64,000 nucleotides of DNA from Candidatus Sericytochromatia bacterium. Lineage in GTDB: Bacteria > Cyanobacteriota > Sericytochromatia > UBA7694. The position numbers and the translations under genes are program-made. Below, in pieces: positions 569 to 30,489 of the stretch (position 1 is the first letter of the stretch; each line of letters begins with the position of its first letter). The DNA lies in contig CAXRDE010000005.1 in assembly GCA_964229355.1 (NCBI GenBank), forward strand, positions 165,131 through 229,130, given 5' to 3'. The notes under the pieces are model-generated. The model did no database searches. It was given only the letters and a program-made list of their open reading frames with translations, and was not told the origin of the DNA.

Positions 569-595
569 TTGAGATTCAATCTCAATGTGGATTTC

Positions 596-7400: not shown

Positions 7401-8570
7401 GCGATCGACAAACATCACAATGCGATTATTCGTATCAATCGCAAGGGAGAGGTCAAATGGCACTATGGTTTTGAAATGGGGCAAGCGCTGTCTCGCCCCT
7501 ACCACCTCACCGAAACCCGACGCACCCTGTTGGTGGCAGATACGGGCAATAACAGGGTGGTAGAAATTTCAAAAACCGACAAAGAAGTGATCGCCGAATT
7601 CAAAGGCCCCGAAGGAGACGCCCTGGGAGGCCCCCGTGCTGCCCAACGTTTGAGTTTTGGGCGCACCTTAATTGCTGACCAACGCAACAAACGTTTGGTA
7701 GAGCTCAACAACCGCGAAGAGATCACCTGGGAGTTTAAACGCATGGGGCAAATTTCATCGCCCCAATACGTCGAAGAGCTCGAAAACGGCAATATCCTCT
7801 TTGTGGACTCGATGCTCAACAGCGTTCGGGAAGTGGATCGCGAAGGCAATTTGCGTTGGTCCTACGGCAGTCGCCTCAAAGGCACAGGCCCGGGCCAACT
7901 GTTCGCTCCCGAGTTTGCCACCCGCCTCAGCAACGGCAATACCTTAATCGCCGACACCCGTAACCATCGCATTTTAGAAGTCACCCTGGATGGCAAAGAG
8001 GTGTGGCGCTATGAAGGCAATAAGACGTTGCGGCAAAAAATCCTCAACCCCACCCGCGCTGAGCGCTTAGACAACGGGAATACGTTTATTACCTATAACA
8101 ACGGGCGAGAGCTGGCGGAAATCTCGCCCAATGAAGAACGCGTCTGGTACTTCAAAATGGGCAACGATGTCTTTTTGCCACCCATTAGCAGCGAAAACCG
8201 GGGCAAAAAGCAAATGGTCGAAAAAGTTACGCCTTACTATAACCCCATCGAGAAACGCCTCATACGCTCTGCCGAAGAAAAAGCCATGTGGGGAATGGAA
8301 GCCCACATTACCCTGATGGAAAACTGTCTTATGAAGTCAGTACGTGCCTCATTGGTCCTTATGATGCTAGAAAAATCAGGAACGGTGGTGAAGACTTTCC
8401 CTTCCCCCGAAGAAATTTTGGCAGACAAATTTGGCAAAGAGATCATTATCTCTTTCATTATGGATCCCGGCAAAGATGCTGAAATCGTGGCCGAAGATAT
8501 CCGCTATATTGGCGAAGTGGAACAGGCGCAAATGGAACGCATTGTTTTTGAAGACACGGTTAAAGTTTGA
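4425..8570 (+). CDS. Large (1381 aa) cytoplasmic multi-beta-propeller protein with NHL repeats, acidic linker and zinc-ribbon
   Basis: No signal peptide. N-terminal coiled-coil. YVTN-like propeller region. Acidic low-complexity stretch (EEAPPSLETEEPDEDSTETTDEAPATEVTDDKSEEE). Cys4 ribbon CPNCNQKLLGSWDCNVCGF. At least 9 NHL-type repeats (DQGNHRVIEV, DTGNHRVIEY, DAGNYRLLEI, DTGNNRVVEI, DQRNKRLVEL, DTRNHRILEV ...). Confidence 0.8.
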   Translation: MARSKITNEILQEALIERQLVEANALQELLQKQAQDFQTHQHKVAGTAYVIDLAKQTLRLQQHPSGEVLETYALNASPQRFNVEDWDSWGSHVLLADTEEGQRQEVFDRELGAPYGLVVTDSKVYLYNEGRLDSEYLGLSKHALFAGVYKGKTEHGPFDLYLSPNKKYLCLSNRGAGQLRVFNLETRTLSEPVDIRAAGSNSTLNVAIDETKGLAYITDNQSAGLYKLHLETLEVERQRVGLGILGNLAMAPTGEHIFLLSIKPNVGLHYVNTTSWSSEKDIKLKGELFKADSSDACDLLSVSPGGEFVMVMSYLNSPDPFTPVLSVIDAKQVKTLRRYSLKDGIKPYQLAYTATNAVAPYTRSLEALVLEAQLMGPQAMWNLKRDLRAQWGEDPDIEEAPPSLETEEPDEDSTETTDEAPATEVTDDKSEEETFLEVEYQIMDIATSTENNPDADTLNITPKKTGHIVLPPEAREEIYDILLSTFQKQVDEDISTYEDVVQRLSDAAEKARVELEDYDSTIVQLDDLFEGHGLKSVIVREAIVMMLELKESVKDQARLVPHECPNCNQKLLGSWDCNVCGFELESPDRANKRRIASAEPTANLPRGHVVVPDPQGLRILQLNPYKYVSWNLDPDQLSCDYPVDTLWMPNDNVMVVDKDGNQILELGLRGKIFWRFDTHASPSHRLDEPVKITYFFPEDSGDRHWLIVDQGNHRVIEVNRQHEIIREFGVQGIPGSEGSNLHSPSDVQFTHNETYLITDTGNHRVIEYKKNGGIEQIFGSKLGLKSPTAALRLFNENTLILDAGNYRLLEINPGGEIVYECTYYTPDMEKAFRVVSPIKMIRLINKDILIMDEDKMLQIMLPAQKLVWHSKIEDLAFQPKVDAPEVVIDADGNERLVYKVVDHGEMRPVRLAQKINFKRMQKLIEARLRGEINPEESSDGKSHNAADKLRALIEDRKLESKRTLRRELTLDTFQPSEIFQAEDTELKGLRHYAIDKHHNAIIRINRKGEVKWHYGFEMGQALSRPYHLTETRRTLLVADTGNNRVVEISKTDKEVIAEFKGPEGDALGGPRAAQRLSFGRTLIADQRNKRLVELNNREEITWEFKRMGQISSPQYVEELENGNILFVDSMLNSVREVDREGNLRWSYGSRLKGTGPGQLFAPEFATRLSNGNTLIADTRNHRILEVTLDGKEVWRYEGNKTLRQKILNPTRAERLDNGNTFITYNNGRELAEISPNEERVWYFKMGNDVFLPPISSENRGKKQMVEKVTPYYNPIEKRLIRSAEEKAMWGMEAHITLMENCLMKSVRASLVLMMLEKSGTVVKTFPSPEEILADKFGKEIIISFIMDPGKDAEIVAEDIRYIGEVEQAQMERIVFEDTVKV

Positions 8571-8572
8571 GC

Positions 8573-9328
8573 TTAAGGGTGTTGGCCTGGGCGCAAGAAA
8601 TAGCGCCCAGCCAGCCGGTGACAGCCGTTGCGTTCAAATACGCGTTGCATCGCCACATTGGCGTGCCCGGTGGAGCCAATATAGCGCTTCACCTGCCGTT
8701 GTGCCAGGGAAGCCAATCCCCATTGATGCAATAAAGCACCGTAGCCTTGCTGGCGAAAGGCCGGCATCACGCCAAGATAAGACAGGGTGCCCTCTGTGGG
8801 CTTATCCTCAAAAATTTGTGGTAAAACAACGCCTACGGCCTGCTCTGTAGGGGTAAAAGCCACCCACCACTGCTCCGCGTCAAAGGCTGCTCCCGCATGA
8901 GCCAGCAGCTCTTCGAATTCTTGCTCTGGCTGGGTCGCGGCAGAGGCTTCAGGATCGTCACTGGCAGCCTCGGTTAAATAGGCGAGAAAGGCAGCCTCTC
9001 CCAACGTGGCCAGACTCTGCCAGTGCAAGGTATTGTCAGGAAAAGCCAAAGTCTCATCTAACTGGCGCTCATACAGATATTTGCACCGGGCGGTTTCAAA
9101 CCCCTGAGCAAAAAGCCATTGCAAAATAGCGGGGGCGCGGTGGTCATCGATCATCAGCGTTTTTTCTGAGCTCAGACAGGTGCGCAAAGCCGCTAAAAAC
9201 AAATCTTGCTGCACAGGATTTACATTCTCCACGCCCTGCCAGGTCTGAATGACCCAACACAAATCGGGCAAAGGGCACAGCACCACGTGTATGCCCTCAG
9301 CCCGATAAGACCATGGGGAAACCGTCAT
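8573..9328 (-). CDS. GNAT-family N-acetyltransferase
   Basis: C-terminal GNAT fold motifs (VGVVLPQIFEDK...LSYLGVMPAFRQQGYGALLHQW...ANVAMQRVFERNGC). Start placed at MTVSPW (ATG 9328), overlapping the ychF stop by 1 nt (TAATG), rather than the longer ORF-track start at 9400. Confidence 0.6.
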   Translation of the reverse strand: MTVSPWSYRAEGIHVVLCPLPDLCWVIQTWQGVENVNPVQQDLFLAALRTCLSSEKTLMIDDHRAPAILQWLFAQGFETARCKYLYERQLDETLAFPDNTLHWQSLATLGEAAFLAYLTEAASDDPEASAATQPEQEFEELLAHAGAAFDAEQWWVAFTPTEQAVGVVLPQIFEDKPTEGTLSYLGVMPAFRQQGYGALLHQWGLASLAQRQVKRYIGSTGHANVAMQRVFERNGCHRLAGRYFLRPGQHP

Positions 9329-10428
9329 TAAACGTTCGAAAGAATATTTAAGATGTCGCCATCCTGGACAATATACTCTTTGCCCTCGGTCCGCACCCAA
9401 CCTTTGGAACGGGCTTCGGCATAAGAGCCGGCTTCTAACAGTTGCTCTGTAGAAACCACTTCCGCGCGAATAAACCCGCGCTCAAAGTCTGAGTGAATTT
9501 TACCGGCTGCCACAGGAGCTTTGCTGTTTTCACGCACCGTCCAGGCATGGGTTTCTTTTTCACCCGCGGTGATAAAAGTGATCAGGCCTAAAATACGATA
9601 ACCTGTGCGAATCAAGAGATTAAGGCCGGGTTCTTCCACGCCCAATTCCGCCAGAAACTCAGCGGCTTCTGCAGCATCCAGGGTAGCCAGCTCCGATTCA
9701 ATTTGCGCCGAAATTTTAATGACATCGTGACCTTCTGTAGCCGCGTATTCACGCACCACACGCACCATATCGTTGTCTTCGAGCAGGTGCTCTTCGGCCA
9801 CATTGGCCACATAAATCACCGGCTTATCTGTCACCAGGCCAAAGTCTTTGGGGATGGGCATGTCGTAGTCTTGAGAACGCACGGGTTTGCCTTCACTCAG
9901 CACCTGATAAATGGTTTCAGCCAATTCAATTTTGGCCAGATCATCTTTGGATTTGGCGCCTTTGGTGTTTTTCTTCATGCGCTCTAAGCGCTTTTCTAAG
10001 GTCGCCAGGTCAGCGAGCACCAACTCTAAGTTAATGGTCTCAATGTCCCGAATAGGATCCACAGAGCCGTCCACATGCACCACCTGGCCATCGTCAAAGC
10101 AGCGCACTACATGGGCAATGGCGTCCACCTCACGAATATGGGACAAGAATTGGTTGCCCAGCCCTTCACCTTTGTGGGCACCACGCACGAGGCCTGCAAT
10201 ATCCACAAACTCTACGGTAGCGGGAATAATCGTGGGTGTGCGATCGCCTTTGGCATATAAAGCCTGTAGTTTAGGGAGGCGGTCATCGGGCACGGCAACC
10301 ATGCCTACATTTTTATCGATGGTGGCAAAAGGGAAGTTGGCGGCCACAGCACCTGCTTTTGTAATTGCGTTAAAAAGAGTGGATTTACCCACGTTGGGAA
10401 GGCCCACAATACCAATACCAAGACTCAT
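9328..10428 (-). CDS. ychF: Ribosome-binding ATPase YchF (Obg-family GTPase)
   Basis: [27 protein letters not shown]...[18 protein letters not shown] (G1-G3 motifs). C-terminal TGS domain ([17 protein letters not shown]). 366 aa, typical length. Confidence 0.95.
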
Positions 10429-10624: not shown

Positions 10625-11413
10625 ATGATTTCACCCACCAATAACTTAGTTAAACTCGGTATCGGTGCCGCCCACCGCATGCGCCTGGAACTGGCTGATC
10701 AGTTATTTTTTCCTGTACTGGTAGATAAAAGCAACCCCTCTCAACCCATGCCCGGGGGCTACATCGGCAATCGCAGTGGTATTTCTACCCGTCTGACCGC
10801 CGACGGCATTGCCGGTAATACAGGAGCCTACGGAGCTGACTACAGCGCACTGGCGGGAGATCCTATCGCAGCAGTCAAAACCATGACCTCTGATGGCCCC
10901 ATCTACACCATGCAACGCTATGATGGCAAAGGCATTATTACCATTGAAGATGCGCGTCTCAACGGTGATCTAAACCCGTCTGCACCTCAATACGATTATT
11001 CTTCAACCCCACGGTATATCGTCAAAGCCGACGGTATTGTCTATGATATCTTAGCCCTCAAAGGTGTCGATCCAGACCCCGATGAAACCGCAGCAAACGG
11101 TCCCTATCAGCACTGGGCTTTTGCAGCCGAAGGACTTCCGAACCCTGCCGGAGGAACCTTTGGCACCGGCACCTATGCTGGTGCCAACAATGCTTACAGG
11201 CCCCATAACGACTTCTTGCCTGCCAATATCACCGAAGATATGTATGTGCGCCCTGTGGGCTTGATTTCATTCCGGGACAAGCAAGGTGCCTCTTCAGGTG
11301 CGATTCAGGAACAACTGCAACGGGCCCAAAGCACATTAGATACCATGAGCCGCCTCTTACGCAGCCTTCACCAGGAATCTCAAACCGCCTTTGCAAACTT
11401 CGTGGTGCGCTAG
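10625..11413 (+). CDS. Hypothetical protein (Gly/Ala/Pro/Tyr-rich, no signal peptide)
   Basis: 262-aa ORF with coding-like composition, an AGGA RBS, and a C-terminal predicted helical segment. No recognisable domain. Confidence 0.45.
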   Translation: MISPTNNLVKLGIGAAHRMRLELADQLFFPVLVDKSNPSQPMPGGYIGNRSGISTRLTADGIAGNTGAYGADYSALAGDPIAAVKTMTSDGPIYTMQRYDGKGIITIEDARLNGDLNPSAPQYDYSSTPRYIVKADGIVYDILALKGVDPDPDETAANGPYQHWAFAAEGLPNPAGGTFGTGTYAGANNAYRPHNDFLPANITEDMYVRPVGLISFRDKQGASSGAIQEQLQRAQSTLDTMSRLLRSLHQESQTAFANFVVR

Positions 11414-11418
11414 GTTTT

Positions 11419-11784
11419 TTAACCCACGCAAACCACGAGAACTTCAAAAATATCCTGGGACACCCGACGCAGATGTTTCACCTGAACACAACTGCCTTCC
11501 GGGTGTCCTTTTTGTGTCAGATGATCAATAAGTTGAGTTTGAATCGCTAAACGCAAGGCCTGCGGATCGTCTACCGCTTCAAAAACCAGTGTCACCTGTT
11601 GCAACCACTGTCCAGAAGCATCGTAGGTGAGACCTTTTTGCTCTGCATGAACAAAAGTGGAGGTCAAAAACGTGTCTGACGGGATCGAAGCCGTCGACGG
11701 AGCGGGTTCATGGCCACAACTTTGTATGGCTGCCAAAAGCAAACAAGACACAAATGCTTTCACCCGGTGTACCCCCTTAGTCAT
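11419..11784 (-). CDS. Small secreted protein or lipoprotein, hypothetical
   Basis: N-terminal signal peptide [24 protein letters not shown] (Cys after a hydrophobic core), 121 aa, convergent with the previous gene. Confidence 0.4.
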
Positions 11785-11863
11785 TTCTCATTGGGATCTG
11801 TGTTGCTGTACAATACTTCAAACATCATCTTACAGCAAGAGCCTGACCAAGAAAGAGATTCCC

Positions 11864-13417
11864 ATGAGTGATTCCACTGCTGAAAAAATTGAGCGCCTCA
11901 AACAAAAGCATGGAGAAATTTTAAAAGGCCAGCCTGCCGCCATTGAAAAACAACATGCGCGCGGTAAGAAAACAGCCCGTGAGCGTCTGGATATTTTATT
12001 GGATCCCGGCAGCTTCGTAGAGTTCGATAAATTTTCGGTGCACCGCTGCTCTCACTTTGGCATGGAGCACAAAAAAATTGAGGGCGATGGTGTCATCACC
12101 GGCTGGGGAAAAATCGAAGGCCAACCCGTGTACGTGTTTTCTCACGACTTCACGGCCTTTGGTGGATCTTTGGGCGAAGTCTTTGCGGAAAAAATCTGCA
12201 AGATTATGGATCTTGCCGTACAAAACGGCACCCCGCTTATTGGCATCAATGATTCTGGGGGCGCCCGCATTCAAGAAGGAGTCGTCTCGTTGGCGGGCTA
12301 TGCCGATATTTTTTACCGTAACGTTCAGGCCTCAGGGGTCATTCCCCAAATCTCAGTAATTATGGGTCCATGTGCCGGAGGCGCAGTGTATTCACCGGCA
12401 CTCACCGATTTCACCTTTATGGTAGAAAACACCAGTCATATGTTTATTACCGGACCCGATGTGGTCAAAACCGTTACCGGTGAAGAGATCAGCTTTGAGG
12501 ACTTAGGCGGTGCCCATACCCACGCCAGCATCAGCGGTGTGGCTCACCTGACTTATCCCGATGAAACCAGCTGTTTAGAGCATGTGCGTTATCTTATGAG
12601 CTTTTTGCCCGCCAATAATTTGAGCGGCAGCCCGCAAAGTCCAGCTCAAGACCCTATCGATCGCAGAGAAGATAGCTTAAACACCCTCATTCCAGACAAC
12701 CCCAACAAGCCCTACGATATGCACACCGTTGTGGAAACCCTTGTGGATGAAGGCGAGTTTTTCGAAATTCAGCCCGATTACGCACCCAACTTGCTTACAG
12801 GTTTTGCCCGCATGAATGGGCAGTCGGTAGGTATTGTGGCCAATCAACCCTTAGCCCTGGCCGGCGTGCTCGATATTAACGCCTCTGTCAAAGGAGGACG
12901 TTTTGTGCGCTTTTGCGACGCCTTCAATATTCCGCTGATCACCCTCGTGGACGTCCCTGGCTTTTTGCCCGGCAAAGATCAAGAGTACGGTGGCATTATT
13001 CGCCACGGTGCCAAGCTGCTTTATGCTTACGCGGAAGCCACCGTGCCCAAAATCACCCTCATTACCCGCAAGGCCTACGGCGGAGCTTACGACGTCATGT
13101 GCAGTAAACACCTACATGCCGACATGAACTTTGCCTGGCCCACCGCTGAGATTGCCGTTATGGGCCCCCAGGGAGCAGTACAGATTATTTCTCGCAAAGA
13201 AATTGCTGAAGCCGAAAATCCTGAAGCTGCCACGGCAGCACTTACCGAGACCTACAAAGAAACCTTTGCAAACCCCTATATTGCCGCCCAGCGGGGATAC
13301 ATTGACGATGTGATTGAGCCTGCCGAAACCCGTAAACACCTGATTCAAGCCCTGGCTATGAATCAGCGCAAACGGGAGCAAGCCCCGCGGCGCAAGCACG
13401 GAAACATTCCCCTGTGA
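11864..13417 (+). CDS. pccB: Acyl-CoA (propionyl/methylmalonyl-CoA) carboxylase carboxyltransferase beta subunit
   Basis: [57 protein letters not shown]...[18 protein letters not shown]: classic PccB/AccD5 carboxyltransferase N- and C-domains. Start moved from ORF-track 11657 to the internal ATG at 11864, where homology begins. Confidence 0.9.
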
Positions 13418-13614
13418 AGCGCATCGTCGTCTTAAAGGGCAACCCCACACCTGAAGAACTGGCCCTTATTGTGGCGCGGCTGCAAAGCACCCACAAGGCC
13501 CCTGAGCCCACGTCAGCAAACGCTGGCCCCCTTAGCCCCTGGCAACAGCAAGCCCACAGTGAGCAGCTAGACCGATGGCCCGCCCGCCTGGGAGATTCGC
13601 ACTGGCGCGTCTAA
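13414..13614 (+). CDS. Acyl-CoA carboxylase epsilon subunit (ACC_epsilon-like small protein)
   Basis: 66 aa, GTG start overlapping the pccB stop (GTGA). [24 protein letters not shown] matches the AccE/PccE signature (..VVRGNPT.EELAA.VAV). Confidence 0.5.
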
Positions 13615-13615
13615 C

Positions 13616-15451
13616 ATGGTAAAGCCCTACGAACTTCCTGTAGAAGACCCCCTTAGCGGTAATCAACGCCGTGTAGAGATTGCGGGCATTCTCTTGCAAA
13701 ACGGCTGGGATGTTCTGGTCCGGCGGCTGGGGTTGCTCGAAATTATTCCAGGCGGCTGGCGACAGCGCTTTCTCAAACAATCTCTGCTCGAAGAAGAAGA
13801 CACAGGTCCTCTCTTGCCCGTCCCCCAGGCCGTGCGCAAGACCCTTGAAGAGCTGGGTCCCACCTTTGTTAAACTGGGACAGGTCTTAAGCACCCGCGCC
13901 GATCTCTTGCCCGAAAGCTATATCACTGAGCTGAAGAAGCTTCAAGAAAACGTCACCCCCGTGCCCTGGGGACTGATGGAACCGGTCATTTTGCAAGAGT
14001 GGAATACCCGCCAGCGCCTCTTAAAACTGCAAAACCCGCAATACGATATGCGCTGGGCCGAGCGTGTTCACGATATTTTTGAAACCTTTGAGACCGTTCC
14101 TCTCGCTGCGGGCTCCCTGGGGCAAGCCTATAAAGCCAGCATTATCGAAGAGGGCACACCCGTTTCGGTAATTGTAAAGGTGCAGCGTCCGGGCTTACTG
14201 CCCGTGGTGGATGCCGACATCAAAATTTTGCGCGATATCGTCGGCCTGGTGGAGCGCACCCACTGGGGCAAAGACTATAACTTTATGGCCATGGTGGATG
14301 AATTCGCGACGGTGATTCGCAACGAATTGGATTTTGTGCAAGAAGCCGAAAATACCGAAGCCATTAAAGCCAATCTGCAAAATTTTTACTCTGAAAAAGA
14401 CATCAAGACCGCCGATATCTACTGGGAATATACCAGTCAGCGCATGATGACCATGGCCTTCATTGAAGGTGAAAAAATTGAGCTGTTTTTCATTCAAAAA
14501 ATAGACCAAATTTTGCAATACCAAAAGCGAAAGCCCGGGCAAGCCCGTGACGATATCAGCCGTGAACGGAAGCGTCTGGCCCAGATCATTACCAACGCCT
14601 TCTTGCATCAGGTGTTTATTGACGGCTTTTTTCATGCGGACCCCCACCCCGGCAATATGCTCTTGCAACCAGACTATGAAGCCGGGCATATGCAATTGGT
14701 GCTCCTGGACTTTGGCATGGTGGGGCGAATTGATCCACGCTCCCGCAGTCTTTTGATTGACTTTCTATTGGCCATTATTCAATTTGATTCCCGTCGGGCC
14801 ACTGACCGAATTTTAGAGTTTGGCAAAGCCCCCCCCACCATCGATCGCCACGCCTTCGCCCAGGACCTGGACCATATTTTACGCAGCACCCTGGGCAAAC
14901 CCATCAAAGAGGTGCAGGTGGGCAAAATCTTGCAAGACATCTTAGATATGACGCTGCGCTATCGGATTCAATTGCCCGGCATTTTTATTACCCTTATTCG
15001 CGTGCTGATCACCATTGAAGGCATTTGCCGTCAGTTGGATCAGGAGTATGTGCTGATCAAAGCCGCAGAACCCTTTGTGGTAGAAGCTATTAAAAATCAA
15101 TTTGTGCAAACCTTTACCCTGCGCGATATGGCACGGGTGGGCTTAGAGTTGACCCAATTGCTCAATAGTCTGCCCCGCCAACTGGACGATTTCTTTGTCA
15201 ATTTAAACTCAGGTCGCCTGCAAACCATCACCGAGCACCGCAACCTGGAGGGTTTAGAGTCGGGCCTACAACGTCTGGGTAACCAAATTGCTGCAGGTAT
15301 GATCGTCTGCGGCCTACTCATTGCCTCTGCGCTAAGTTTACAGGTCCATCGAGGGCCCAGTATTTTTGGAACCCCGCTGGTCAGCATCGGCTTTTTTGCC
15401 CTCACGATTATTTTGGGACTCTGGCTCTTAAACAAAATTAACCAGCGTTAA
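13616..15451 (+). CDS. ABC1/UbiB-family atypical protein kinase with C-terminal TM helices
   Basis: ABC1 motifs LGQVLSTRADLLPESYITELKKLQ, AAGSLGQAYKA, HADPHPGNMLL, LLDFGMVG. Two C-terminal TM segments. Confidence 0.9.
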   Translation: MVKPYELPVEDPLSGNQRRVEIAGILLQNGWDVLVRRLGLLEIIPGGWRQRFLKQSLLEEEDTGPLLPVPQAVRKTLEELGPTFVKLGQVLSTRADLLPESYITELKKLQENVTPVPWGLMEPVILQEWNTRQRLLKLQNPQYDMRWAERVHDIFETFETVPLAAGSLGQAYKASIIEEGTPVSVIVKVQRPGLLPVVDADIKILRDIVGLVERTHWGKDYNFMAMVDEFATVIRNELDFVQEAENTEAIKANLQNFYSEKDIKTADIYWEYTSQRMMTMAFIEGEKIELFFIQKIDQILQYQKRKPGQARDDISRERKRLAQIITNAFLHQVFIDGFFHADPHPGNMLLQPDYEAGHMQLVLLDFGMVGRIDPRSRSLLIDFLLAIIQFDSRRATDRILEFGKAPPTIDRHAFAQDLDHILRSTLGKPIKEVQVGKILQDILDMTLRYRIQLPGIFITLIRVLITIEGICRQLDQEYVLIKAAEPFVVEAIKNQFVQTFTLRDMARVGLELTQLLNSLPRQLDDFFVNLNSGRLQTITEHRNLEGLESGLQRLGNQIAAGMIVCGLLIASALSLQVHRGPSIFGTPLVSIGFFALTIILGLWLLNKINQR

Positions 15452-15545
15452 TTTCACAAAAACAATTCTCAATTTGTCACCGAAAAGCAAATCCACCTCC
15501 ATAAAAATGAGAGGTCTGTTATCATAAGGTAATGGAGTAAATACA

Positions 15546-17630
15546 GTGACGAGCACGCCTGAAAAGCAGCAAAAAAAATACTGTCTCAACTGCTTCCATA
15601 TCATGGAAGCAGAGCAAATGCTATGCGAAAACTGCAAATACCTTCAACCCAGCACCTATAACCCCACATATATACGCCCTCCCTATCGGATTCAACAATA
15701 TATTTTAGGTCGCGTTTTAGGCCATGGCGGTTTTGCCATTACCTATCTGGCTTATGACCGCAGTTTGGGCACGCGCGTCGCCATTAAAGAATATTTTCCC
15801 GCAGAGTTTGCCAACCGTGCACCGGACGGTGAAAACATCGTTCCCTACGAGGGAGAACGCGAAACCCTCTTTCAACTGGGGAAAGAAAAATTCATTGCCG
15901 AAGCCCGTTTATTGGCCACCCTGCGCAACCCCAATATTATTCGCATTCGACAATTTATTGAGAACGCCAACACCGCCTACTTTATTATGGAGTACTTAGA
16001 GGGCCATACGCTAAAAGAGTACATTATGCAAAAGGGGGGACAATTAAGCTGGGAAGAAACCAAAGCTTTATTGCTGCCCATTTTAGGGGCTTTAGAAGAA
16101 GTACACTCCAAGCAGTGCTACCACCGCGATATTAAACCCGAAAACATTTATATCTCTCAAAACAAAACCCCCATTCTGTTGGACTTTGGGGCTGCCCGCC
16201 AGCATATGTCAGGGGCTACTACAAATCTGCTGGCCTTTGTCACCCCCGGCTTTGCCCCTGCTGAGCAATACTCAGCAAACGGCGTCCAGGGTCCCTGGAC
16301 AGATATATATTCTCTAGCTGCCACCATGTATTACGCCTTAATGGGCGAAACGCCCCCTGTACCCCAGGATCGGGCCATGGGTGAAAGTGAATTGATTCGT
16401 CCCTCTGACAAAGGCATTGAGATTCCGCCTCGCGAAGAGGAGTGGTTGCTCAAAGGGCTCGAAGTCAAATGGAGCCACCGTCCTGAAAGTGTTGCCCAAT
16501 GGCGCATGATGCTAGAACGCAATTTCACCCAGACCGTGGAGCTCAAAGCCGAAGAGCTGCAAAAAGAAATGGGCATGGCCTTTTTACGCAGTGCCATTTT
16601 GCCCCGCTTAACCTTGCGCTTACTCACCCCTGAACAAGAACAAGAAATCCATGAAGCTGCGAAATTTATTGGTCTGAACACAGAACAGGTCAACGGGTTA
16701 ATTGAGCAGGCTTTATTAATGACCGGCTCTGAACGACGGGCGGCCATTCAAACTGAAACCGCACCCCTGCACAAGATCTCAAATACAGACGCCGTCAATT
16801 CCTCGTCTCGGGAACGGGTCGTTAAAGCCCGTATGGAGCAAGCCACACCCACCCCACCGCCTGCTCAGAGTCAGCCGCCAAAGTCAGCGCCCGGCCCCCA
16901 AATTCAAGCTGAAGACAGCAATGCCCTGGCCCCTCGCATTCGCAACTCGTTGGGCATGGAATTTGTACTGGTTAAACCCTTTCAGCTCAAAGAAGGCAAA
17001 GCCGAATACACCACCTTTAATCTGGGCACAGAACACCGACCTTATCAGATTCAGCTCACCCGCCCCTATTATTTGCAAACCACGCAAATCACCCAGGGTC
17101 AATGGCGGGTGGTCATGGGCAGCAATCCCTCTCATTTTCAGGGTGACGACTGGCAACCCGTGGAAAACATTTCCTGGGACGACACCGCTAATTTTATTCA
17201 GCGGCTGAATATGCTCAACGAGGGCTTTTACCGCTTACCCACCGAAGCCGAATGGTTTTTTGCCTGTTCAGGCCAGGGTGCTGAAGACCGTTATAGTTTT
17301 GGGAGCGATGAAAACCGCTTGCAGGACTATGCCTGGTATGACGCCAACGCGCAGGGACGTCCTCACGCCGTGGGCCTTAAGCGCCCCAATCGCTTTGGCC
17401 TCTATGATATGCACGGCAACGTTTGGGAATGGATCGCCGATCGCTTTGGCCCGTTTCCGGTCGGCGAATTTAAAAATCCCAAAGGCCCTGACCGGGGCAA
17501 CTCACGGGTCATGCGCGGCGGCAGCTGGAATTTAGGCGCCAATTACTGCACCGTCAAAAGCCGCAATTATGAGGCATCTCATTACAAAGCCTCGAATCTG
17601 GGTGTACGATTACTGCTAGAGCCCAAATAG
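15546..17630 (+). CDS. Ser/Thr protein kinase (N-terminal zinc ribbon) fused to a C-terminal FGE-sulfatase domain
   Basis: Cys4 ribbon CLNCFHIMEAEQMLCENCKY. Hanks kinase motifs GHGGFAITYLAYD, VAIKEY, YHRDIKPENI, LLDFGAAR, TPGFAPAEQ. Pro/Gln-rich linker. FGE-sulfatase motifs (NISWDDTANFIQRLN, YRLPTEAEW, GLYDMHGNVWEW, RVMRGGSWN). Confidence 0.9.
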   Translation: MTSTPEKQQKKYCLNCFHIMEAEQMLCENCKYLQPSTYNPTYIRPPYRIQQYILGRVLGHGGFAITYLAYDRSLGTRVAIKEYFPAEFANRAPDGENIVPYEGERETLFQLGKEKFIAEARLLATLRNPNIIRIRQFIENANTAYFIMEYLEGHTLKEYIMQKGGQLSWEETKALLLPILGALEEVHSKQCYHRDIKPENIYISQNKTPILLDFGAARQHMSGATTNLLAFVTPGFAPAEQYSANGVQGPWTDIYSLAATMYYALMGETPPVPQDRAMGESELIRPSDKGIEIPPREEEWLLKGLEVKWSHRPESVAQWRMMLERNFTQTVELKAEELQKEMGMAFLRSAILPRLTLRLLTPEQEQEIHEAAKFIGLNTEQVNGLIEQALLMTGSERRAAIQTETAPLHKISNTDAVNSSSRERVVKARMEQATPTPPPAQSQPPKSAPGPQIQAEDSNALAPRIRNSLGMEFVLVKPFQLKEGKAEYTTFNLGTEHRPYQIQLTRPYYLQTTQITQGQWRVVMGSNPSHFQGDDWQPVENISWDDTANFIQRLNMLNEGFYRLPTEAEWFFACSGQGAEDRYSFGSDENRLQDYAWYDANAQGRPHAVGLKRPNRFGLYDMHGNVWEWIADRFGPFPVGEFKNPKGPDRGNSRVMRGGSWNLGANYCTVKSRNYEASHYKASNLGVRLLLEPK

Positions 17631-17644
17631 CCCCAGGAGGCCCC

Positions 17645-18397
17645 ATGTACCGACACGACAACGCCTTTCAAGAAGAATATATTCCTGAACGCCGGGGGTT
17701 TCGCAATATTGCCTGGCTCTTAACGGCCGCGCTGCTGACCGTCTTTATTTGGCAAATTCCCTTTGGCGATTATCTGCTGTACCCCTTTAGTATTTTGGCC
17801 ACCTGGTTTCATGAGATGGGACACGGGGTCACCGCCATGTTGTTGGGGCAAAAATTTCGTCAGCTGCTCATTTTTCCGAATGGCTCAGGTATTGCCTACC
17901 ACACGGCCGGTGGCGCCCTCAGCAGCGCCCTGGTGGCCGCAGGCGGTCTTTTAGGCCCTCCCATTGCAGGCGCTGTGTTCATTTTAAACAGCACCTCTGC
18001 CAAACGCAGTCAGCTCTTATTGCGTTTACTGGGTATTGTACTACTGGTGTCTACGGTCATTTGGGTACGCACCGCCTTTGGCTGGGTGATTTTACCGCTA
18101 ATGGGCTTAAGTCTATTGGCCGTGGCTGGCAAAGGCCCCCTGTGGTTACAGCAGGTGGTCATTCAGTTTTTGGGTGTACAGGCCTGTATTAGCACCTATC
18201 GCCAGCTTGACTATTTGTTTATGGAGAGTGCCAATGTGGGAGGCAAGCAAATGCTGTCCGACACCGGCCACATTGCAGAAGCTCTGCTTTTGCCCTACTG
18301 GATCTGGGGCAGTGCCATCGCGGTGACGTCTTTTGGATTACTGGCCATGAGCCTGTGGCACGTGGCGCGTACGCCCGTTAAAAACACACGGCTTTAA
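17645..18397 (+). CDS. Peptidase M50B-like integral membrane metalloprotease
   Basis: TM helices with ILATWFHEMGHGVTAMLLG (HExxH within a helix), typical of the M50B-like family. 14 nt downstream of the kinase gene. Confidence 0.6.
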   Translation: MYRHDNAFQEEYIPERRGFRNIAWLLTAALLTVFIWQIPFGDYLLYPFSILATWFHEMGHGVTAMLLGQKFRQLLIFPNGSGIAYHTAGGALSSALVAAGGLLGPPIAGAVFILNSTSAKRSQLLLRLLGIVLLVSTVIWVRTAFGWVILPLMGLSLLAVAGKGPLWLQQVVIQFLGVQACISTYRQLDYLFMESANVGGKQMLSDTGHIAEALLLPYWIWGSAIAVTSFGLLAMSLWHVARTPVKNTRL

Positions 18398-18399
18398 GC

Positions 18400-18657
18400 A
18401 TGAATGATGTAGATCAAATACAGCTTCAAATTTTTCAGCGCATGTCTCCGGAGCGTCGACTCAAAATGGGGTTAGAAATGACTACAGATGGACTTCGCAT
18501 TATGGACTTACGCCTCTGTCAGCAGATGCCTGAAAGTAGCCAGGGAGAGAGAATGGCAGCACGCTTTGAAGCGCTTTATAAAAACGACCTGCCTCCAGAT
18601 GTGCTTCAAGCTTGCCTTAAAGGCCTTCGAAAGCACTGGAGAGAGCGTTCACATTAA
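18400..18657 (+). CDS. Hypothetical small protein (85 aa)
   Basis: ORF starting 2 nt after the M50B-like gene stop. No recognisable domain. Confidence 0.3.
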   Translation: MNDVDQIQLQIFQRMSPERRLKMGLEMTTDGLRIMDLRLCQQMPESSQGERMAARFEALYKNDLPPDVLQACLKGLRKHWRERSH

Positions 18658-18885: not shown

Positions 18886-20646
18886 TTAATCAAACAGTGG
18901 ATCGACAGTGTTGGCGTTGTAATCATCCTGAGGGGGTACCGGAATCGGTGTAGAAGCCGTTTGCGTACGCTCGACTTTGCCTGCACGGGCGGTTTCAGGC
19001 AGGGTCGGTTCTATGCCCATTTCTTCGATATCGCGAGCCAGGTTACGCTTTTGCACCCCGGCCAGGGCCGATGGTTGTTGCACGGGCTTTTGCTGTGCCT
19101 GACGGGTTGACGTCGGCTGTTGAGGCTGTGTTACCGCAGTACGACTGGGTTTAACGTAGCGCTGGGGCTGACGGCGGGTAGTCTCTTGCATCAACACCCC
19201 ATTCGATAAGCGCTGATTGGCGGAACGTTTCCAGTCTTCATCACTCAGCACCGCATGATAATGCTTCACCAAATCGGGGCCAATGAGCACCGTAAAGTCG
19301 GTGTTCAGCTCACCCACACTGGCATTCACAAACTCGCCCTTAAAGCCCAATTGCTGTTGAAGCTGAGGCAAAATCTGAGACTCTCCATTTTGCGCAATCA
19401 ATTTGGTTACCGGCGTGTCGTGAGGCGCACGGCGTACACTCACCACACTGTAACCCGCTTCCTGCAGACGGCGAGAAACTTCCCGTACCGTTTGCAAATC
19501 CTTGGTGGCATTCCAAATGGCCACGCGATACTGGCGATTGCTATTTTCACTGGCCGCTAAACCATCAGTGGAACTTTCGTTGGGGTCCGGTAAAGAGGCA
19601 AAGCTAGAATCAGGAAACATTTGGTTGATCACTTTGCGCATCTGGTAAGGGTTGGGCTCCCAATAGCTGATACCACTGATATTGGCAAAGGTACCGGGCA
19701 ACATCACCATACGCACTTTGTCACGATCGATGCCCCGGCCAAATTTTGCCAGTTTTACAATTTCGTCACTGGGCAGATCGGTTTCAATGTTTTCATTGAG
19801 GTGAGCCAGGAGCTCAGGCACTTTCAGCAGGGTTTGAGGCTGCAAAAGTTTGTCCATGACTGCGCGAATAAATTTTTGTTGACGCTGTACCCGACCAATA
19901 TCGCCCAGTTCGTCTTTACGAAAACGAATATACTGGTGCGCCTGTTCGCCATTCATGCGTTCTTTCCAGCCCTTGTGAATATTAATGCCCAAATGAGCGG
20001 TTTCATCCACATAATACATGTCTTTTTCCACATAAATACGAATGCCCCCCAAAATATCGATGGTGTTCACCAGGCCATCCACTTTCAGGGCCATATAATA
20101 ATCGATGGGCACCCCCACCAGATCCGAGACGGTGCTTTTGACCAAATCAACGCCGCCATAGGTCATGGCGGCGTTGATTTTATCGTAGTGGTGTCCCGTC
20201 AACAGGGTCCGGGTATCACGGGGAATCGAAAGAATATTGACTTCCTGCGTTGCGGGATCCAAACTGGCCAACATAATGGTGTCGGTACGGCTGCGCACAC
20301 CGGCGACTTTATCGTCCACCCGTTTACCGTAGCTATAATTGTAGTCGCTGCCTAAAATTAAAATGTTGGTACGACGCTGCAGATTACCCGCACTAAACCA
20401 ACCGGGAATGAGTTCCAGTGGGTTTAAAGCCTGCGTCGTGGTGCCCCCCCCTGAAGAGCCTTTGCTTTCAAGGGTAAAGGGATTCATGGAGAGCCGGGTA
20501 TCACCCGAAATATTAAAGGTCTGGGCCATGACCCCCACAATGCTTCCAATGGACAGGGCACCGCACACAAAGAGCGTGGCGATGAGGATGCGAAATGCTT
20601 TTTGCATTTTCTTTTCTTGCGTTGACACAAATTTAGGCTTTGACAT
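18886..20646 (-). CDS. LytR-CpsA-Psr (LCP) family protein with LytR_C domain and Gln/Pro-rich C-terminal tail
   Basis: N-terminal TM anchor. LCP core (NILILGSDYNYSYGKRVDDK...RTDTIMLASLD...NILSIPRDT). LytR_C-like segment (YRVAIWNATKDLQTVREVSRRLQEAGYSVVSV). Low-complexity Q/P tail. Confidence 0.85.
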   Translation of the reverse strand: MSKPKFVSTQEKKMQKAFRILIATLFVCGALSIGSIVGVMAQTFNISGDTRLSMNPFTLESKGSSGGGTTTQALNPLELIPGWFSAGNLQRRTNILILGSDYNYSYGKRVDDKVAGVRSRTDTIMLASLDPATQEVNILSIPRDTRTLLTGHHYDKINAAMTYGGVDLVKSTVSDLVGVPIDYYMALKVDGLVNTIDILGGIRIYVEKDMYYVDETAHLGINIHKGWKERMNGEQAHQYIRFRKDELGDIGRVQRQQKFIRAVMDKLLQPQTLLKVPELLAHLNENIETDLPSDEIVKLAKFGRGIDRDKVRMVMLPGTFANISGISYWEPNPYQMRKVINQMFPDSSFASLPDPNESSTDGLAASENSNRQYRVAIWNATKDLQTVREVSRRLQEAGYSVVSVRRAPHDTPVTKLIAQNGESQILPQLQQQLGFKGEFVNASVGELNTDFTVLIGPDLVKHYHAVLSDEDWKRSANQRLSNGVLMQETTRRQPQRYVKPSRTAVTQPQQPTSTRQAQQKPVQQPSALAGVQKRNLARDIEEMGIEPTLPETARAGKVERTQTASTPIPVPPQDDYNANTVDPLFD

Positions 20647-20731: not shown

Positions 20732-22399
20732 ATGCAACAACTTCATCTGGCCTTTATTTGGCACATGCACCAACCCATGTACCGCAAGCCCCATAGCCAT
20801 CACTATATGATGCCCTGGGTGCGCCTTCACGGCACCAAAGACTATCTGGACATGCTGCTGCTGGTGCAGAAGTACCCCCGCCTCAAGCACACCTTCAATT
20901 TTGTACCTTCCTTATTGGAGCAACTCGAAGACTATGCCGCTGGCCTGGCCACCGATGACTATCTAATCCTCAGTCAAAAGCCCGTCAAAAATCTTACCGC
21001 CCAGGATAAAGCCGATATTTTGGCTTCGTTTTTTGATCTGAACTGGCAACACATGCTATTCCCCTTTAAACGCTACAAGGCCCTGGCTGCTCAGCGCGAA
21101 GAAGCGCCTGAAAGCTATCGTGAGCAAGATTTTCTGGATCTGACCACCTGGTTTAACCTGGCCTGGATTGACCCCATTCATCGCGAACAGCGGCCCACCC
21201 TGCAGGCCCTGGTGCAAAAAGGTGAGAACTTCACCGAAGCGGAGCGCGCAGAGGTCCTTCATCAGCAGCGGCTGATTATTCAAGACACCCTACCAATTTA
21301 CCGAAAAGCCTTACAGAATCAACACATTGAACTGACCACAACCCCTTATTACCACCCCATTTTGCCCCTGTTACAAGACACCCACAACGCACGCCGCAGC
21401 AGGCCTGAATCCAGCATGCCCCAACAGCGATTGCAAGCCCCCGAAGATGTCCAGCGCCATCTTCACAAAGCGAAAAACTTTCATCACAAAACCTTTGGCC
21501 AGGTCCCTCAGGGACTTTGGCCCTCAGAGCAATCCATGAGCCCGGATATCCTGAAGACGGTGGCAGAGGAAGGCTTTACCTGGTTTGCGAGTAGCGAAGG
21601 GATTCTTTGGCACTCCCTGGGCATTTGGGGACAGCGGGAGCAAGGCCTACACCCCCATTGCGAGAAACTTTACCGTCCCTACCGCGTTCAGGCGGGAGAA
21701 CGCTGGCTGACCGTGGTCTTCCGCGACATTTATCTTTCTGACTGGTTGGGCTTTAACGCCTGGAAAGGCGACAACAAAGCACAGGCTCACATCTTTTATG
21801 AGGAGCTTAAAAAGCTACAGCGTCACTTGCAGCAAAGCCCGCAAAAACAGCCTTATTTAATCACCATTGCTTTAGATGGTGAAAACTGCTGGGAGTATTA
21901 CCAGGAAGACGGCAGAATCTTTTTAGAAACCCTTTACGAACTGCTCAATGCCGACGAGAGCATTAACAGCACCACCGTGAGTGATTATTTAAAGCAATAC
22001 CCCGCACAGGACACCCTTGATCGTCTGTTTCCAGGCTCCTGGATCAACTCAGATTTTAGCACCTGGATCGGTGAGCCCACCAAGAACAAAGCCTGGGATT
22101 TGCTGATCGAAACCCGTCAGCTTCTGACACAAGCGGAACACACGCTTAGTCCCGAAGATCGCGCCGCCGCCTGGGAAATGCTGGACACCGCTGAGGGCAG
22201 CGATTGGTTTTGGTGGTTTGGCGTGGGACACAGTAGCCGCCATGACGCCCACTTTGATCTGGCGTTTCGCACCTATCTCAAAGGGGTCTATGAGCTGCTC
22301 AAGCAAGAAGTGCCGTTGAGTTTGCGCTGCCCCTTAGAGTCTCATGAAGGCAGTGCCCATGGTTTAAGCACCATGCAAGCCTCTCAAGAAGGTTATTAA
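20732..22399 (+). CDS. Glycoside hydrolase family 57 alpha-glucan-active enzyme
   Basis: LAFIWHMHQPMYRK...WVRLHGTKDYLDM (GH57 HQP motif region), IALDGENCWEYY (catalytic Glu region), WFWWFG. Confidence 0.8.
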   Translation: MQQLHLAFIWHMHQPMYRKPHSHHYMMPWVRLHGTKDYLDMLLLVQKYPRLKHTFNFVPSLLEQLEDYAAGLATDDYLILSQKPVKNLTAQDKADILASFFDLNWQHMLFPFKRYKALAAQREEAPESYREQDFLDLTTWFNLAWIDPIHREQRPTLQALVQKGENFTEAERAEVLHQQRLIIQDTLPIYRKALQNQHIELTTTPYYHPILPLLQDTHNARRSRPESSMPQQRLQAPEDVQRHLHKAKNFHHKTFGQVPQGLWPSEQSMSPDILKTVAEEGFTWFASSEGILWHSLGIWGQREQGLHPHCEKLYRPYRVQAGERWLTVVFRDIYLSDWLGFNAWKGDNKAQAHIFYEELKKLQRHLQQSPQKQPYLITIALDGENCWEYYQEDGRIFLETLYELLNADESINSTTVSDYLKQYPAQDTLDRLFPGSWINSDFSTWIGEPTKNKAWDLLIETRQLLTQAEHTLSPEDRAAAWEMLDTAEGSDWFWWFGVGHSSRHDAHFDLAFRTYLKGVYELLKQEVPLSLRCPLESHEGSAHGLSTMQASQEGY

Positions 22400-23511: not shown

Positions 23512-23587
23512 GAGCCGTTAGCTCAGTTGGTAGAGCATCTGACTTTTAATCAGACGGTCCCGCGTTCGAGTCGCGGACGGCTCACCA
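23512..23587 (+). tRNA. tRNA-Lys (anticodon UUU)
   Basis: GAGCCGTTAGCTCAGTTGGTAGAGCATCTGACTTTTAATCAGACGGTCCCGCGTTCGAGTCGCGGACGGCTCACCA: full cloverleaf, anticodon loop CT-TTT-AA, encoded CCA. Confidence 0.9.
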
Positions 23588-23590
23588 TTT

Positions 23591-23665
23591 GCCCCGTTCG
23601 TCTAGAGGCCTAGGACACCGCCCTTTCACGGCGGCGACAGGGGTTCGACTCCCCTACGGGGTACC
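23591..23665 (+). tRNA. tRNA-Glu (anticodon UUC)
   Basis: GCCCCGTTCGTCTAGAGGCCTAGGACACCGCCCTTTCACGGCGGCGACAGGGGTTCGACTCCCCTACGGGGTACC. Near-identical architecture to E. coli tRNA-Glu. Anticodon loop CT-TTC-AC. Confidence 0.9.
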
Positions 23666-29112: not shown

Positions 29113-30489
29113 ATGGTCTTTTCTATGAAACCCATACATAGCCTCGCCGCTTTTTGTTTTTTAACAGCCCCTCTCTTGAGTGGGTCACTCCCGGCCCAGG
29201 CCGATACCCCCGAGCAAGTGAAAACCCTTAAAAACATTCAAATTCACCCATTGCCTGGTCAACTCGACAATCATCCTATGCTGAACAGCAACAGTCCTGA
29301 AATTGTTGAAGAATCGGGAATTCTGGTCTCTTCAATCCCCGGAAAATCCCCCGCCTATTTGAGTTACCCCTTTAAAGGAAAATTTGGCCTGTTTTCGCAT
29401 CATATTGCCAAAGATACCACTCCCGGTGAGCGCTTACTTTACCTGGGGACACTCGTGAGCAATCCCGGCGCGACACCGGTTACACTAGAACTCACAGCAG
29501 GCGCATCATACCTGAGCCAACCCGACGCGCTGTTTAAGCCCCTTCCGGCCCTTACTGACAATCCCCAGGGGAAAATTTTTGCGGGCCCAGGGGATCGGGT
29601 GACCACAGAATTGCTCGCCGGTACCAGTCCCCTCAAAAAACAGATTTTCACCATTCCAGCCCGCTCAACCCAACTGATTGCCAGTTTGCCCGTACCCACC
29701 AATGTAAAAATCCTACCGCCCATTAACGGACGCTCGACGCTGATGTACTTCAACGCTTCTGACAATCTCTACGTCTCACATCTGGCCTTTTTTGCAGAAA
29801 AAAAAGGCGGGCAATTTGTGGCCCCCACCCTTGAGGATTACCGAGAACTTCTGAACAGCGGAAAAATGGCAGGCAAGCGCGAACAAGCCCCCACAAACTA
29901 TATGCGCGAAAAGCCCCAGGGTGGCTTTCGCTATGGTCGCGTCGCTGGCATTAGCCAGGGCTTAACCTGGCAAAGCAAACTCTTTCAGGGTGACCAACTT
30001 TTACAGCGACCTGGAGTAGGCGAAACCGTAGGGTACCCCATCTCGGCGGTGTATCTCAAGCGGATGGGTACCGATCAAAATCAAAGTGGGGAGCTGTTGC
30101 GCCGTTACCCCGACACAGCCTACCAAAACCATGCTAATTATGGAGTGCGCTACGATATTGAAATCCCCTTACACAACCGCACGCCGAGTTATCAAACCTA
30201 TCGGATTGGCTTATCTCACCCCGCTGCACAAAACAAGGATGAATTCACCTATTTGTTCCCCCCCAATAAACCCGTCATGTACCGGGGCAGCACCCGTCTA
30301 AGCTGGACCGACGAATTTAATCAGAAGCAGGAGCGGCTCAAGCATGTGGTCTTACAGCATGGCCAGGAAGCACAGCCCCTGCACATGTTCACCCTGGCTC
30401 CCGGAGTAGACTATGATGTTCGTCTGAGCCTGTACTATCCTGCAGACAGCACGCCGCCCCAACTCTTAACGGTTGAACGTGTTGAGTAG
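29113..30489 (+). CDS. Secreted hypothetical protein (458 aa)
   Basis: Signal peptide MKPIHSLAAFCFLTAPLLSGSLPAQA. No catalytic motif recognised. Possibly related to cyanobacterial-type DUF3370 secreted proteins (memory only, unverified). Confidence 0.55.
   Translation: MVFSMKPIHSLAAFCFLTAPLLSGSLPAQADTPEQVKTLKNIQIHPLPGQLDNHPMLNSNSPEIVEESGILVSSIPGKSPAYLSYPFKGKFGLFSHHIAKDTTPGERLLYLGTLVSNPGATPVTLELTAGASYLSQPDALFKPLPALTDNPQGKIFAGPGDRVTTELLAGTSPLKKQIFTIPARSTQLIASLPVPTNVKILPPINGRSTLMYFNASDNLYVSHLAFFAEKKGGQFVAPTLEDYRELLNSGKMAGKREQAPTNYMREKPQGGFRYGRVAGISQGLTWQSKLFQGDQLLQRPGVGETVGYPISAVYLKRMGTDQNQSGELLRRYPDTAYQNHANYGVRYDIEIPLHNRTPSYQTYRIGLSHPAAQNKDEFTYLFPPNKPVMYRGSTRLSWTDEFNQKQERLKHVVLQHGQEAQPLHMFTLAPGVDYDVRLSLYYPADSTPPQLLTVERVE

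Follow-up and report, generated by a model that had tools for sequence, protein, structure and literature searches.

The window, by which the whole stretch of 64,000 nucleotides (nt) analysed here is meant, comes from Candidatus Sericytochromatia bacterium (contig CAXRDE010000005.1), a member of the non-photosynthetic sister lineage of cyanobacteria, and the subject is a row of six genes on its forward strand. In order, these encode an acyl-CoA carboxyltransferase beta subunit (pccB), an epsilon-subunit-like open reading frame (ORF; accE-like), an ABC1/UbiB-family atypical kinase or ATPase (UbiB below), a Ser/Thr kinase with a zinc ribbon and a domain resembling the formylglycine-generating enzyme (FGE), an M50B-like membrane metalloprotease (M50B), and a protein of 85 amino acids (aa). 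Coordinates are collected in Table 1. From the ORF table and the translations, the six co-directional genes and the gaps of -4, 1, 94, 14 and 2 nt between them, as given in an earlier reading of the nucleotide letters (the sequence-only reading), were reproduced, and all of its gene and domain names hold, backed by Pfam except for the 85-aa protein, which has no match. That reading took the row for one operon linking an acyl-CoA carboxylase to two kinases and a protease, and for this no support was obtained: the junction between the UbiB and kinase genes is lost in relatives. We consider it likely that the row is a lineage-specific juxtaposition of three evolutionary units and no dedicated operon, namely unit A (pccB, accE-like and UbiB genes), unit B (kinase/FGE and M50B genes) and unit C (the 85-aa gene). 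Tight packing by itself is unremarkable in the window, and same-strand runs of at least five ORFs are also found elsewhere in it, e.g., at 29113-35845 and 48446-56199.

Eight orthologous kinase loci (window included) and approximately 12 UbiB loci, all from metagenome assemblies, were compared, and they set only rough limits on how deep each block goes within Sericytochromatia. Among named sequences, the closest homologues of the kinase and UbiB belong to metagenome-assembled genomes (MAGs) of Candidatus Sericytochromatia, Blackallbacteria, and 'Melainabacteria'. Neighbours of the kinase loci were taken at decreasing identity and checked by tblastn. A scan of genome contigs with the kinase/FGE protein was dominated by the generic FGE peptide MHGNVWEW. 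The 80 loci that it gave are all from unrelated phyla, with no orthologue from Sericytochromatia among them, and they were used solely as a negative control for neighbouring M50B, pccB, and UbiB genes. A scan of metagenome contigs with the single UbiB protein found nothing, and was redone with an alignment of the clade-specific C-terminal region of UbiB, giving 13 loci.

On the kinase side, the order in the window (ychF on the reverse strand, further on pccB, accE-like, UbiB, kinase/FGE, M50B and the 85-aa gene, then a LytR-CpsA-Psr (LCP) family gene on the reverse strand, a glycoside hydrolase family 57 (GH57) gene, and S20 on the reverse strand) is repeated in L002 (kinase identity, 88%), with an AbiEii/DUF6036 gene inserted before an 84-aa gene, and in L087, a TARA scaffold (81%), minus the 85-aa gene. 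Units A and B are adjacent in these three loci only, that is, at a kinase identity of at least 81%. In L001 (69%), the order is tyrosyl-tRNA synthetase (TyrRS; tyrS), kinase/FGE, M50B, LCP (reverse strand) and GH57; L006 and L088 (67% and 66%, respectively) have the same order with an AlkZ-like gene between kinase/FGE and M50B. In L004 (53%), TyrRS and kinase/FGE are followed by an unrelated ORF of approximately 150 aa and M50B is absent, and L089 (64% over the kinase half) has the order of L004. A paralogue of 48% identity (L005) lies in an unrelated context. The TyrRS gene is directly upstream of kinase/FGE on the same strand in all five of L001, L004, L006, L088, and L089 (approximately 8560-9920 in each), and is the deepest conserved neighbour of kinase/FGE. 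Because two separate deeper clades have TyrRS ahead of the kinase, this arrangement is, by parsimony, taken as ancestral; tyrS itself was not found in the 64-kb window by tblastn.

On the UbiB side, L090 (UbiB identity, 74%) carries ychF on the reverse strand, further on pccB, a 78-aa ORF with a weak ACC_epsilon match, UbiB, and NDH-2 on the opposite strand, and L091, L092, L096, and L102 (69%) carry pccB, a 79-aa ORF, UbiB, and a GAF histidine kinase gene, L092 being from the Blackallbacteria assembly GCA_002781665.1. The pccB gene is upstream of every UbiB orthologue that is at least 69% identical and of none at or below 52%; no pccB was found near the UbiB homologues of 41-52% identity with adequate flanks (L093, L094/L101, L098-L100, and L104). 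Two ORFs without a Pfam match (262 aa, forward strand; 121 aa, reverse strand) lie between ychF and pccB (10625-11784), and ORFs of similar size and the same orientation occupy that place in L002, L087, and L090, so that conservation extends into the flank upstream of block A. In the MAG JACYMC01, unit A (L090) is located on NODE_392 and unit B (L088) on NODE_2501, and because they are on different contigs of one MAG the two blocks are regarded as unlinked there. The 48% paralogue L005 lies approximately 18 kb from the L090 trio on the opposite strand of NODE_392, which is probably a coincidence.

The junction of units A and B is the 94-nt gap upstream of the kinase GTG. Synonymous sites are saturated among the window, L002, and L087 (synonymous divergence, dS, >1.5), and despite this the window and L002 are almost the same over approximately 45 nt immediately before the kinase start. 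This segment contains an extended -10-like element, and its pattern TGnTAnnnT recurs upstream of the kinase in 8/8 orthologous loci (Table 1). By shuffling, the chance of the pattern was 0.05-0.35 per locus, with a product of approximately 1e-7 if the loci are independent. The element is probably the putative promoter of block B itself, carried along with the block, its activity being judged from the motif. No terminator-like structure is prominent after UbiB; a consensus scan of the region gave 14 terminator-like sites versus 13.4 expected, i.e., no enrichment, and neither favours nor rules out a terminator at that place. Promoter-like sites in the region numbered 16 versus 10.3 expected, and the site upstream of pccB is not significant alone. 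An Rfam scan of the window detected no RNA family in or near the gene row, the tRNAs lying elsewhere only.

With these data, the history of the row may be reconstructed as follows. Units A and B would have been brought together when the ancestor of the window's clade underwent a rearrangement, the direction of which follows from parsimony; unit B, whose ancestral upstream neighbour would be tyrS, would be transcribed from a separate extended -10 promoter inside the 94-nt gap; and the link of carboxylase, kinase, and protease is probably an accident of this rearrangement. The alternative that the six genes form one functional operon in the window's clade, transcribed from the pccB promoter and coupling carboxylation and UbiB-dependent lipid or quinone handling to phosphorylation and intramembrane proteolysis, is considered unlikely. 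It is favoured by the common strand with gaps of at most 94 nt, by the lack of an excess of terminator-like sites, and by an order from pccB to M50B that is kept in three genomes with saturated synonymous sites, but the junction is broken in every sampled lineage outside the clade on both the kinase and the UbiB side, a conserved extended -10-like element lies inside it, the sixth gene is accessory, antitoxin-like and missing in L087, and the kinase/FGE loci of other phyla lack these neighbours, except that L010 has one UbiB homologue on the other strand at a distance of approximately 6 kb. Loss of synteny in close relatives, one of two observations that the sequence-only reading had named as contrary to an operon, was thus found in part, at 66-69% kinase identity and 69-74% UbiB identity, with the junction kept at a kinase identity of at least 81%; of the other, independent promoters and terminators between the genes, a conserved promoter-like motif was found and an excess of terminators was not.

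Several points weigh against the juxtaposition of three units. The value of 1e-7 overstates significance because the eight loci are homologous and not independent, and the promoter call consists of a short motif and its conservation. Transcription from the pccB promoter may run on into the kinase gene. Saturated dS among the three genomes that keep the junction implies that it has long been stable and could have gained co-regulation. The UbiB homologues at or below 52% identity that lack pccB may be paralogues, in which case the phyletic depth of unit A is uncertain, and the sample is small (8 kinase loci and approximately 12 UbiB loci, all metagenome assemblies). The value of reading the row as three juxtaposed units is mainly corrective: a compact row in a poorly studied lineage mimics a new operon of signalling and metabolism and yet would be a product of rearrangement, and no carboxylase-kinase-protease pathway should be inferred from it.

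Table 1. Positions of the genes, sites, and domains discussed (nt positions within the window or within the locus named; residue numbers for protein domains)
Feature	Locus	Position	Strand	Remarks
Promoter-like site TTCTCA-18-TACAAT	window	11785-11814	+	~50 nt upstream of pccB; weak consensus match
pccB, acyl-CoA carboxyltransferase beta subunit (PccB/AccD5-like)	window	11864-13417	+	517 aa; PF01039 Carboxyl_trans, E 1.9e-210
accE-like, epsilon-subunit-like ORF	window	13414-13614	+	66 aa; GTG start; PF13822 ACC_epsilon, 33.8 bits
ABC1/UbiB-family atypical kinase or ATPase	window	13616-15451	+	611 aa; PF03109 ABC1, E 3.2e-55
Intergenic junction of units A and B	window	15452-15545	+	94 nt; extended -10-like TGTTATCAT at 15517-15525; GGAG at 15534-15537; GTG at 15546
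Zn-ribbon Ser/Thr kinase with FGE-like domain	window	15546-17630	+	694 aa; Pkinase, E 2e-33; FGE-sulfatase, E 3.1e-33
M50B-like membrane metalloprotease	window	17645-18397	+	250 aa; PF13398 Peptidase_M50B, E 2.5e-43
85-aa ORF	window	18400-18657	+	no Pfam match
LCP family gene	window	18886-20646	-	convergent with M50B; PF03816, E 8.1e-42
GH57 glycoside hydrolase gene	window	20732-22399	+	PF03065, E 2.4e-60
Kinase/FGE protein, zinc ribbon	window	residues 13-30		
Kinase/FGE protein, Hanks kinase	window	residues ~53-330		followed by low-complexity linker
Kinase/FGE protein, FGE-like domain	window	residues ~480-689		
TGnTAnnnT element	window, L002			TGTTATCAT
TGnTAnnnT element	L087			TGCTATCAT
TGnTAnnnT element	L001			TGATAAGAT
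TGnTAnnnT element	L006			TGCTAAGAT
TGnTAnnnT element	L088			TGTTAAGAT
TGnTAnnnT element	L004, L089			TGGTAAAAT
AlkZ-like gene (PF06224)	L006	12154-13338		between kinase/FGE and M50B
AlkZ-like gene (PF06224)	L088	12077-13219		between kinase/FGE and M50B
AbiEii/DUF6036 nucleotidyltransferase gene (178 aa) and overlapping 84-aa gene	L002	12842-13625		between M50B and LCP

In unit A, the match of pccB to PF01039 spans the whole model length, its best NCBIfam match is mmdA (814.9 bits, under the 998.8 cut-off), and its ratio of nonsynonymous to synonymous substitution (dN/dS) is 0.02-0.03. It stands upstream of the accE-UbiB pair in L002, L087, L090, and L091/L092. The accE-like ORF scores above the 25-bit cut-off of PF13822; its GTG start overlaps the pccB TGA by 4 nt, and in the window it ends 1 nt before the UbiB ATG. 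An epsilon-like ORF is in the same position with the same 4-nt overlap with the pccB stop in five lineages, ending 1 nt before the UbiB start in L002 as in the window and overlapping that start by 7 nt in L087 and by 13 nt in L090 and L091/L092. The ORFs of the five lineages share an N-terminal xLxGxP(T/S)xEE motif and two Trp residues. They evolve fast, with 41-50% identity where the neighbours show 80-93% and the beta subunits 89-93%, and with a dN/dS of approximately 0.33-0.38 versus 0.02-0.09 for the neighbouring genes. The protein collection lacks the window ORF in its exact form, i.e., it is uncalled or called with another start, and it is uncalled in L002 (7859-8101) and L087 (4027-4227). 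Annotation may systematically miss small ACC_epsilon genes outside Actinobacteria.

A beta gene with an epsilon gene directly downstream is an arrangement typical of Actinobacteria (PMC13118682). As in PccB-PccE and AccB-AccE of Streptomyces coelicolor and AccD5-AccE5 of Mycobacterium tuberculosis, a PF01039 beta gene is followed in the window by a small PF13822 epsilon gene, here with a 4-nt overlap of the two, whereas the host belongs to Sericytochromatia and an ABC1/UbiB gene is added as a third coupled gene. An epsilon-type carboxylase pair, held to be characteristic of Actinobacteria, occurs in Sericytochromatia in tight coupling to an ABC1/UbiB gene. No biotin carboxylase or biotin carboxyl carrier protein domain, as expected of an alpha subunit, was found among the ORFs of the 64-kb window by domain scans.

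The ABC1/UbiB protein shares PF03109, the KxGQ motif, the Ala-rich loop, HxDxHPGN, and DFG with Escherichia coli UbiB, yeast Coq8, and plant ABC1K; in the window protein these are KLGQ86, AAGSLGQ164 (Ala-rich loop), HADPHPGN340, and DFG365. Hydrophobic segments at residues 554-578 and 581-609 correspond to a pair of membrane helices at the C terminus, a feature shared with E. coli UbiB. Its NCBIfam scores are below both cut-offs (TIGR01982, 342.9 versus 487.55; NF003404, 258.5 versus 667), and because it is under these UbiB equivalog cut-offs it is treated as a family member and not as a proven UbiB orthologue. In contrast to the UbiB/ABC1/COQ8 family, the window gene is linked to carboxyltransferase genes and not to ubi genes, and no report of an ABC1/UbiB gene coupled to an acyl-CoA carboxylase was found in the literature searched.

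Unit A may be described as a translationally coupled trio, in which an actinobacterial-style beta subunit and its epsilon partner would be co-expressed with a membrane-anchored ABC1/UbiB atypical kinase or ATPase, and which might supply carboxylated acyl-CoA tied to a membrane lipid or quinone-handling function. We propose only tentatively that the trio is an undescribed functional unit, in which the beta/epsilon carboxyltransferase works with, or is regulated by, the membrane-anchored protein. If so, it would couple, e.g., the supply of carboxylated acyl-CoA to the handling of membrane lipids or polyketide-type quinones and would open a genetic route to the biochemistry of the UbiB family, whose role is still unclear and for which the coupling of the three genes could be a useful probe.

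The kinase/FGE protein of unit B carries all Hanks motifs (Gly-rich loop, VAIK Lys, HRDxKPxN, and DFG), as do its 24 nearest orthologues (P0001-P0024). Its zinc ribbon is called from the motif only (CxxC-x10-CxxC) and is kept in 22/24 orthologues. No hydrophobic or membrane segment was found in the protein, and hence the whole protein, with both domains, is considered cytoplasmic. The FGE-sulfatase domain (PF03781) scored 116 bits versus a gathering threshold of 23.3, and the RGGSW and GNVWEW motifs pointed out by the sequence-only reading are present in it. Alignment with the FGE of S. coelicolor (2q17) places RGGSW-N-L-G-A-N-Y-C against GGSY-L-C-H-D-S-Y-C. In a residue-level alignment to human SUMF1 (chain 2aii), the equivalent of C336 is Leu and that of C341 is kept, so that of the catalytic, copper-binding Cys pair, retention of which the sequence-only reading had proposed to check, the second Cys is retained and the first is lost. 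The same Leu replaces the first Cys in all 24 nearest orthologues. Canonical FGE activity is not expected, because the first catalytic Cys is Leu, and this substitution supports the earlier suggestion of a binding or regulatory role for the domain in place of sulfatase maturation. The best solved relative of the domain is the variable protein 1 of Treponema denticola (2y3c; E 7.5e-36, versus 2e-14 for true FGEs), which shows the same GGSW-x-x-x-A-x-Y-C pattern without the first Cys and is a stand-alone chain of 294 residues, whereas the window domain is fused to a kinase.

Fusions of this kind were said to exist, and they are indeed recorded in an NCBI family name and in the literature, the kinase plus FGE-sulfatase architecture being listed in an atlas of bacterial Ser/Thr kinases (bioRxiv 10.1101/2025.01.12.632604). 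The NCBI 'bifunctional serine/threonine-protein kinase/formylglycine-generating enzyme family' has the same N-terminal Hanks kinase and C-terminal PF03781 and is widespread across phyla; the orthologue group of the window differs in an added N-terminal zinc ribbon, in the absence of a membrane segment, and in having the second FGE Cys only. The C-terminal FGE-fold domain, its catalytic cysteine pair being lost, would serve as a binding or sensor module, and a conserved cytoplasmic kinase with such a domain would then be a clear case of reuse of the fold as a non-enzymatic module.

The M50B protein has HEMGH, an HExxH zinc site, at residue 56 and several hydrophobic segments in a polytopic profile, and from its sequence it is predicted to be a polytopic membrane metalloprotease. 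Its gene directly follows the kinase gene in the window, L002, L087, and L001. In L006 and L088, the intervening AlkZ-like gene overlaps or abuts both neighbours; we take its family (PF06224) to include DNA glycosylases. M50B is absent beside the kinase in L004 and L089, and by tblastn it was near kinase/FGE or FGE genes in 0/80 loci from other phyla, so that its pairing with the kinase is specific to the clade. The convergent LCP gene keeps its place and direction in six loci (the window, L002, L087, L001, L006, and L088), in all of which GH57 comes next. GH57 is the last gene of the block that lineages have in common; beyond it, S20 is found in the window's clade versus sigma-70 and DnaG in loci of the L001/L088 type. 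Unit B would accordingly consist of a soluble cytoplasmic Hanks kinase and then M50B, and would travel with the convergent LCP cell-wall ligase gene and GH57.

For the 85-aa protein of unit C, three close homologues were obtained by a word-indexed search, and a profile search gave 13 representatives, 11 of which are approximately 86-116 aa. Six of the 14 aligned members match PF18993 (Rv0078B-related antitoxin family; best E 8.3e-9); the window protein itself is under every Pfam threshold, and the L002 homologue scored 19 bits to PF18993 versus the 27.1 cut-off. A comparison of the family profile with PDB entry 8an5_C gave a weak match (E 0.29). The AlphaFold model of the protein had a predicted local distance difference test score (pLDDT) of 72.7 from a three-sequence alignment, and Foldseek of this model against PDB gave no significant match (best E 1.4, globins). 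In L002, the 84-aa homologue (54% identical) overlaps the upstream AbiEii/DUF6036 nucleotidyltransferase gene by 8 nt, and this pair resembles a MenT/MenA-type toxin-antitoxin in reversed order, the window keeping the small gene only. The 85-aa gene is absent from L087, L001, L006, and L088, as is the nucleotidyltransferase gene. No cognate toxin gene lies beside the window ORF, which starts at 18400 after the end of M50B at 18397; of the loci compared, only L002 carries the toxin gene.

The M. tuberculosis pair MenA1/MenT1 (Rv0078B/Rv0078A) has been characterised as a nucleotidyltransferase toxin-antitoxin system, with menA1 preceding menT1 (PMC10435456). In the literature, MenT toxins are described as DUF1814-family nucleotidyltransferases, of a superfamily that includes AbiEii. 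The likeness to MenAT1 consists in the matches of 85-aa homologues to PF18993 and of the L002 partner to AbiEii and DUF6036 nucleotidyltransferases, whereas the small gene of L002 comes after the nucleotidyltransferase gene and the window is without a toxin gene. With moderate confidence, the 85-aa gene is probably an accessory, solo antitoxin-like remnant related to Rv0078B/MenA1, and unit C would be what is left over of a MenT/AbiEii-type nucleotidyltransferase toxin-antitoxin module.

Three proposals on the role of unit B were weighed. An FGE domain that is catalytically active and matures sulfatases under regulation by the kinase would fit the strong PF03781 match (E 3.1e-33) and the retained RGGSW and GNVWEW; this reading was rejected and is given almost no credence, since the equivalent of C336 is Leu here and in all 24 closest orthologues, and no sulfatase domain was found by domain scans among ORFs of at least 150 aa in the 64-kb window. 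The closest solved relative likewise speaks against it, being the FGE-like T. denticola protein and no true FGE. Very improbable as well is a role in anti-phage defence, with the protein as a PD-T4-6-type or MADS mad6-type kinase and its antitoxin-like neighbour as the mark of a defence island. Matches to PADLOC models (mad6, E 7.7e-48; PD-T4-6, down to 3e-45) and to NCBIfam antiphage_MADS6 (E 1.7e-33) were obtained, and a MenT/AbiEii-like toxin-antitoxin pair lies beside block B in L002. These matches cover only the generic Hanks domain (NCBIfam, 116 bits versus a 460-bit cut-off), no other MADS or BREX components were found nearby by domain scans, and the stable position beside tyrS across diverged Sericytochromatia is unlike that of a mobile defence gene; as the likeness is confined to the generic kinase domain, the defence reading was rejected.

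A module of phosphorylation-controlled proteolysis or envelope function, in which the FGE-like domain would sense a ligand, the kinase would regulate M50B or the reverse, and the output would act on the pathway of the neighbouring LCP cell-wall glycopolymer ligase, is conceivable, though doubtful; it is compatible with the juxtaposition of three units and would narrow the role of unit B. Six of the eight orthologous loci have the kinase and M50B genes side by side or almost so (gaps, 8-39 nt), and all six also retain the convergent LCP gene; the HExxH of M50B and the kinase motifs are intact. The proposal is weakened by the unrelated AlkZ-like gene that splits the pair in L006 and L088, by the lack of M50B next to the kinase in L004 and L089, by the absence of the pairing from all 80 loci of other phyla, and by a literature search on the family name Peptidase_M50B (PF13398), which gave no precedent.

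Elsewhere in the window, a 1381-aa protein (4425-8570, forward strand) combines NHL/beta-propeller-like repeats with a C-terminal CheA-type P2 response-regulator-binding domain (PF07194, E 2.9e-14), an odd combination that is conserved in L002. A DUF3370 protein, a LanC-like protein, and a TPR plus GT41 glycosyltransferase are encoded in a tight same-strand row (29113-33806, forward strand). An N6/N4 DNA methylase gene is followed 12 nt on by a 685-aa ORF without a Pfam match (48446-51465, forward strand), and the two may be a restriction-modification or defence pair. The tRNA genes comprise adjacent pairs at 398-568 (reverse strand) and 23512-23663 (forward strand) and a single gene at 43668-43752. 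Flagellar/type III export genes of the FliM, FliN-like, FliP, and FliR families (37521-43314, forward strand), together with a sigma-70-family factor (33866-34606), suggest that motility genes are present in this Sericytochromatia genome.

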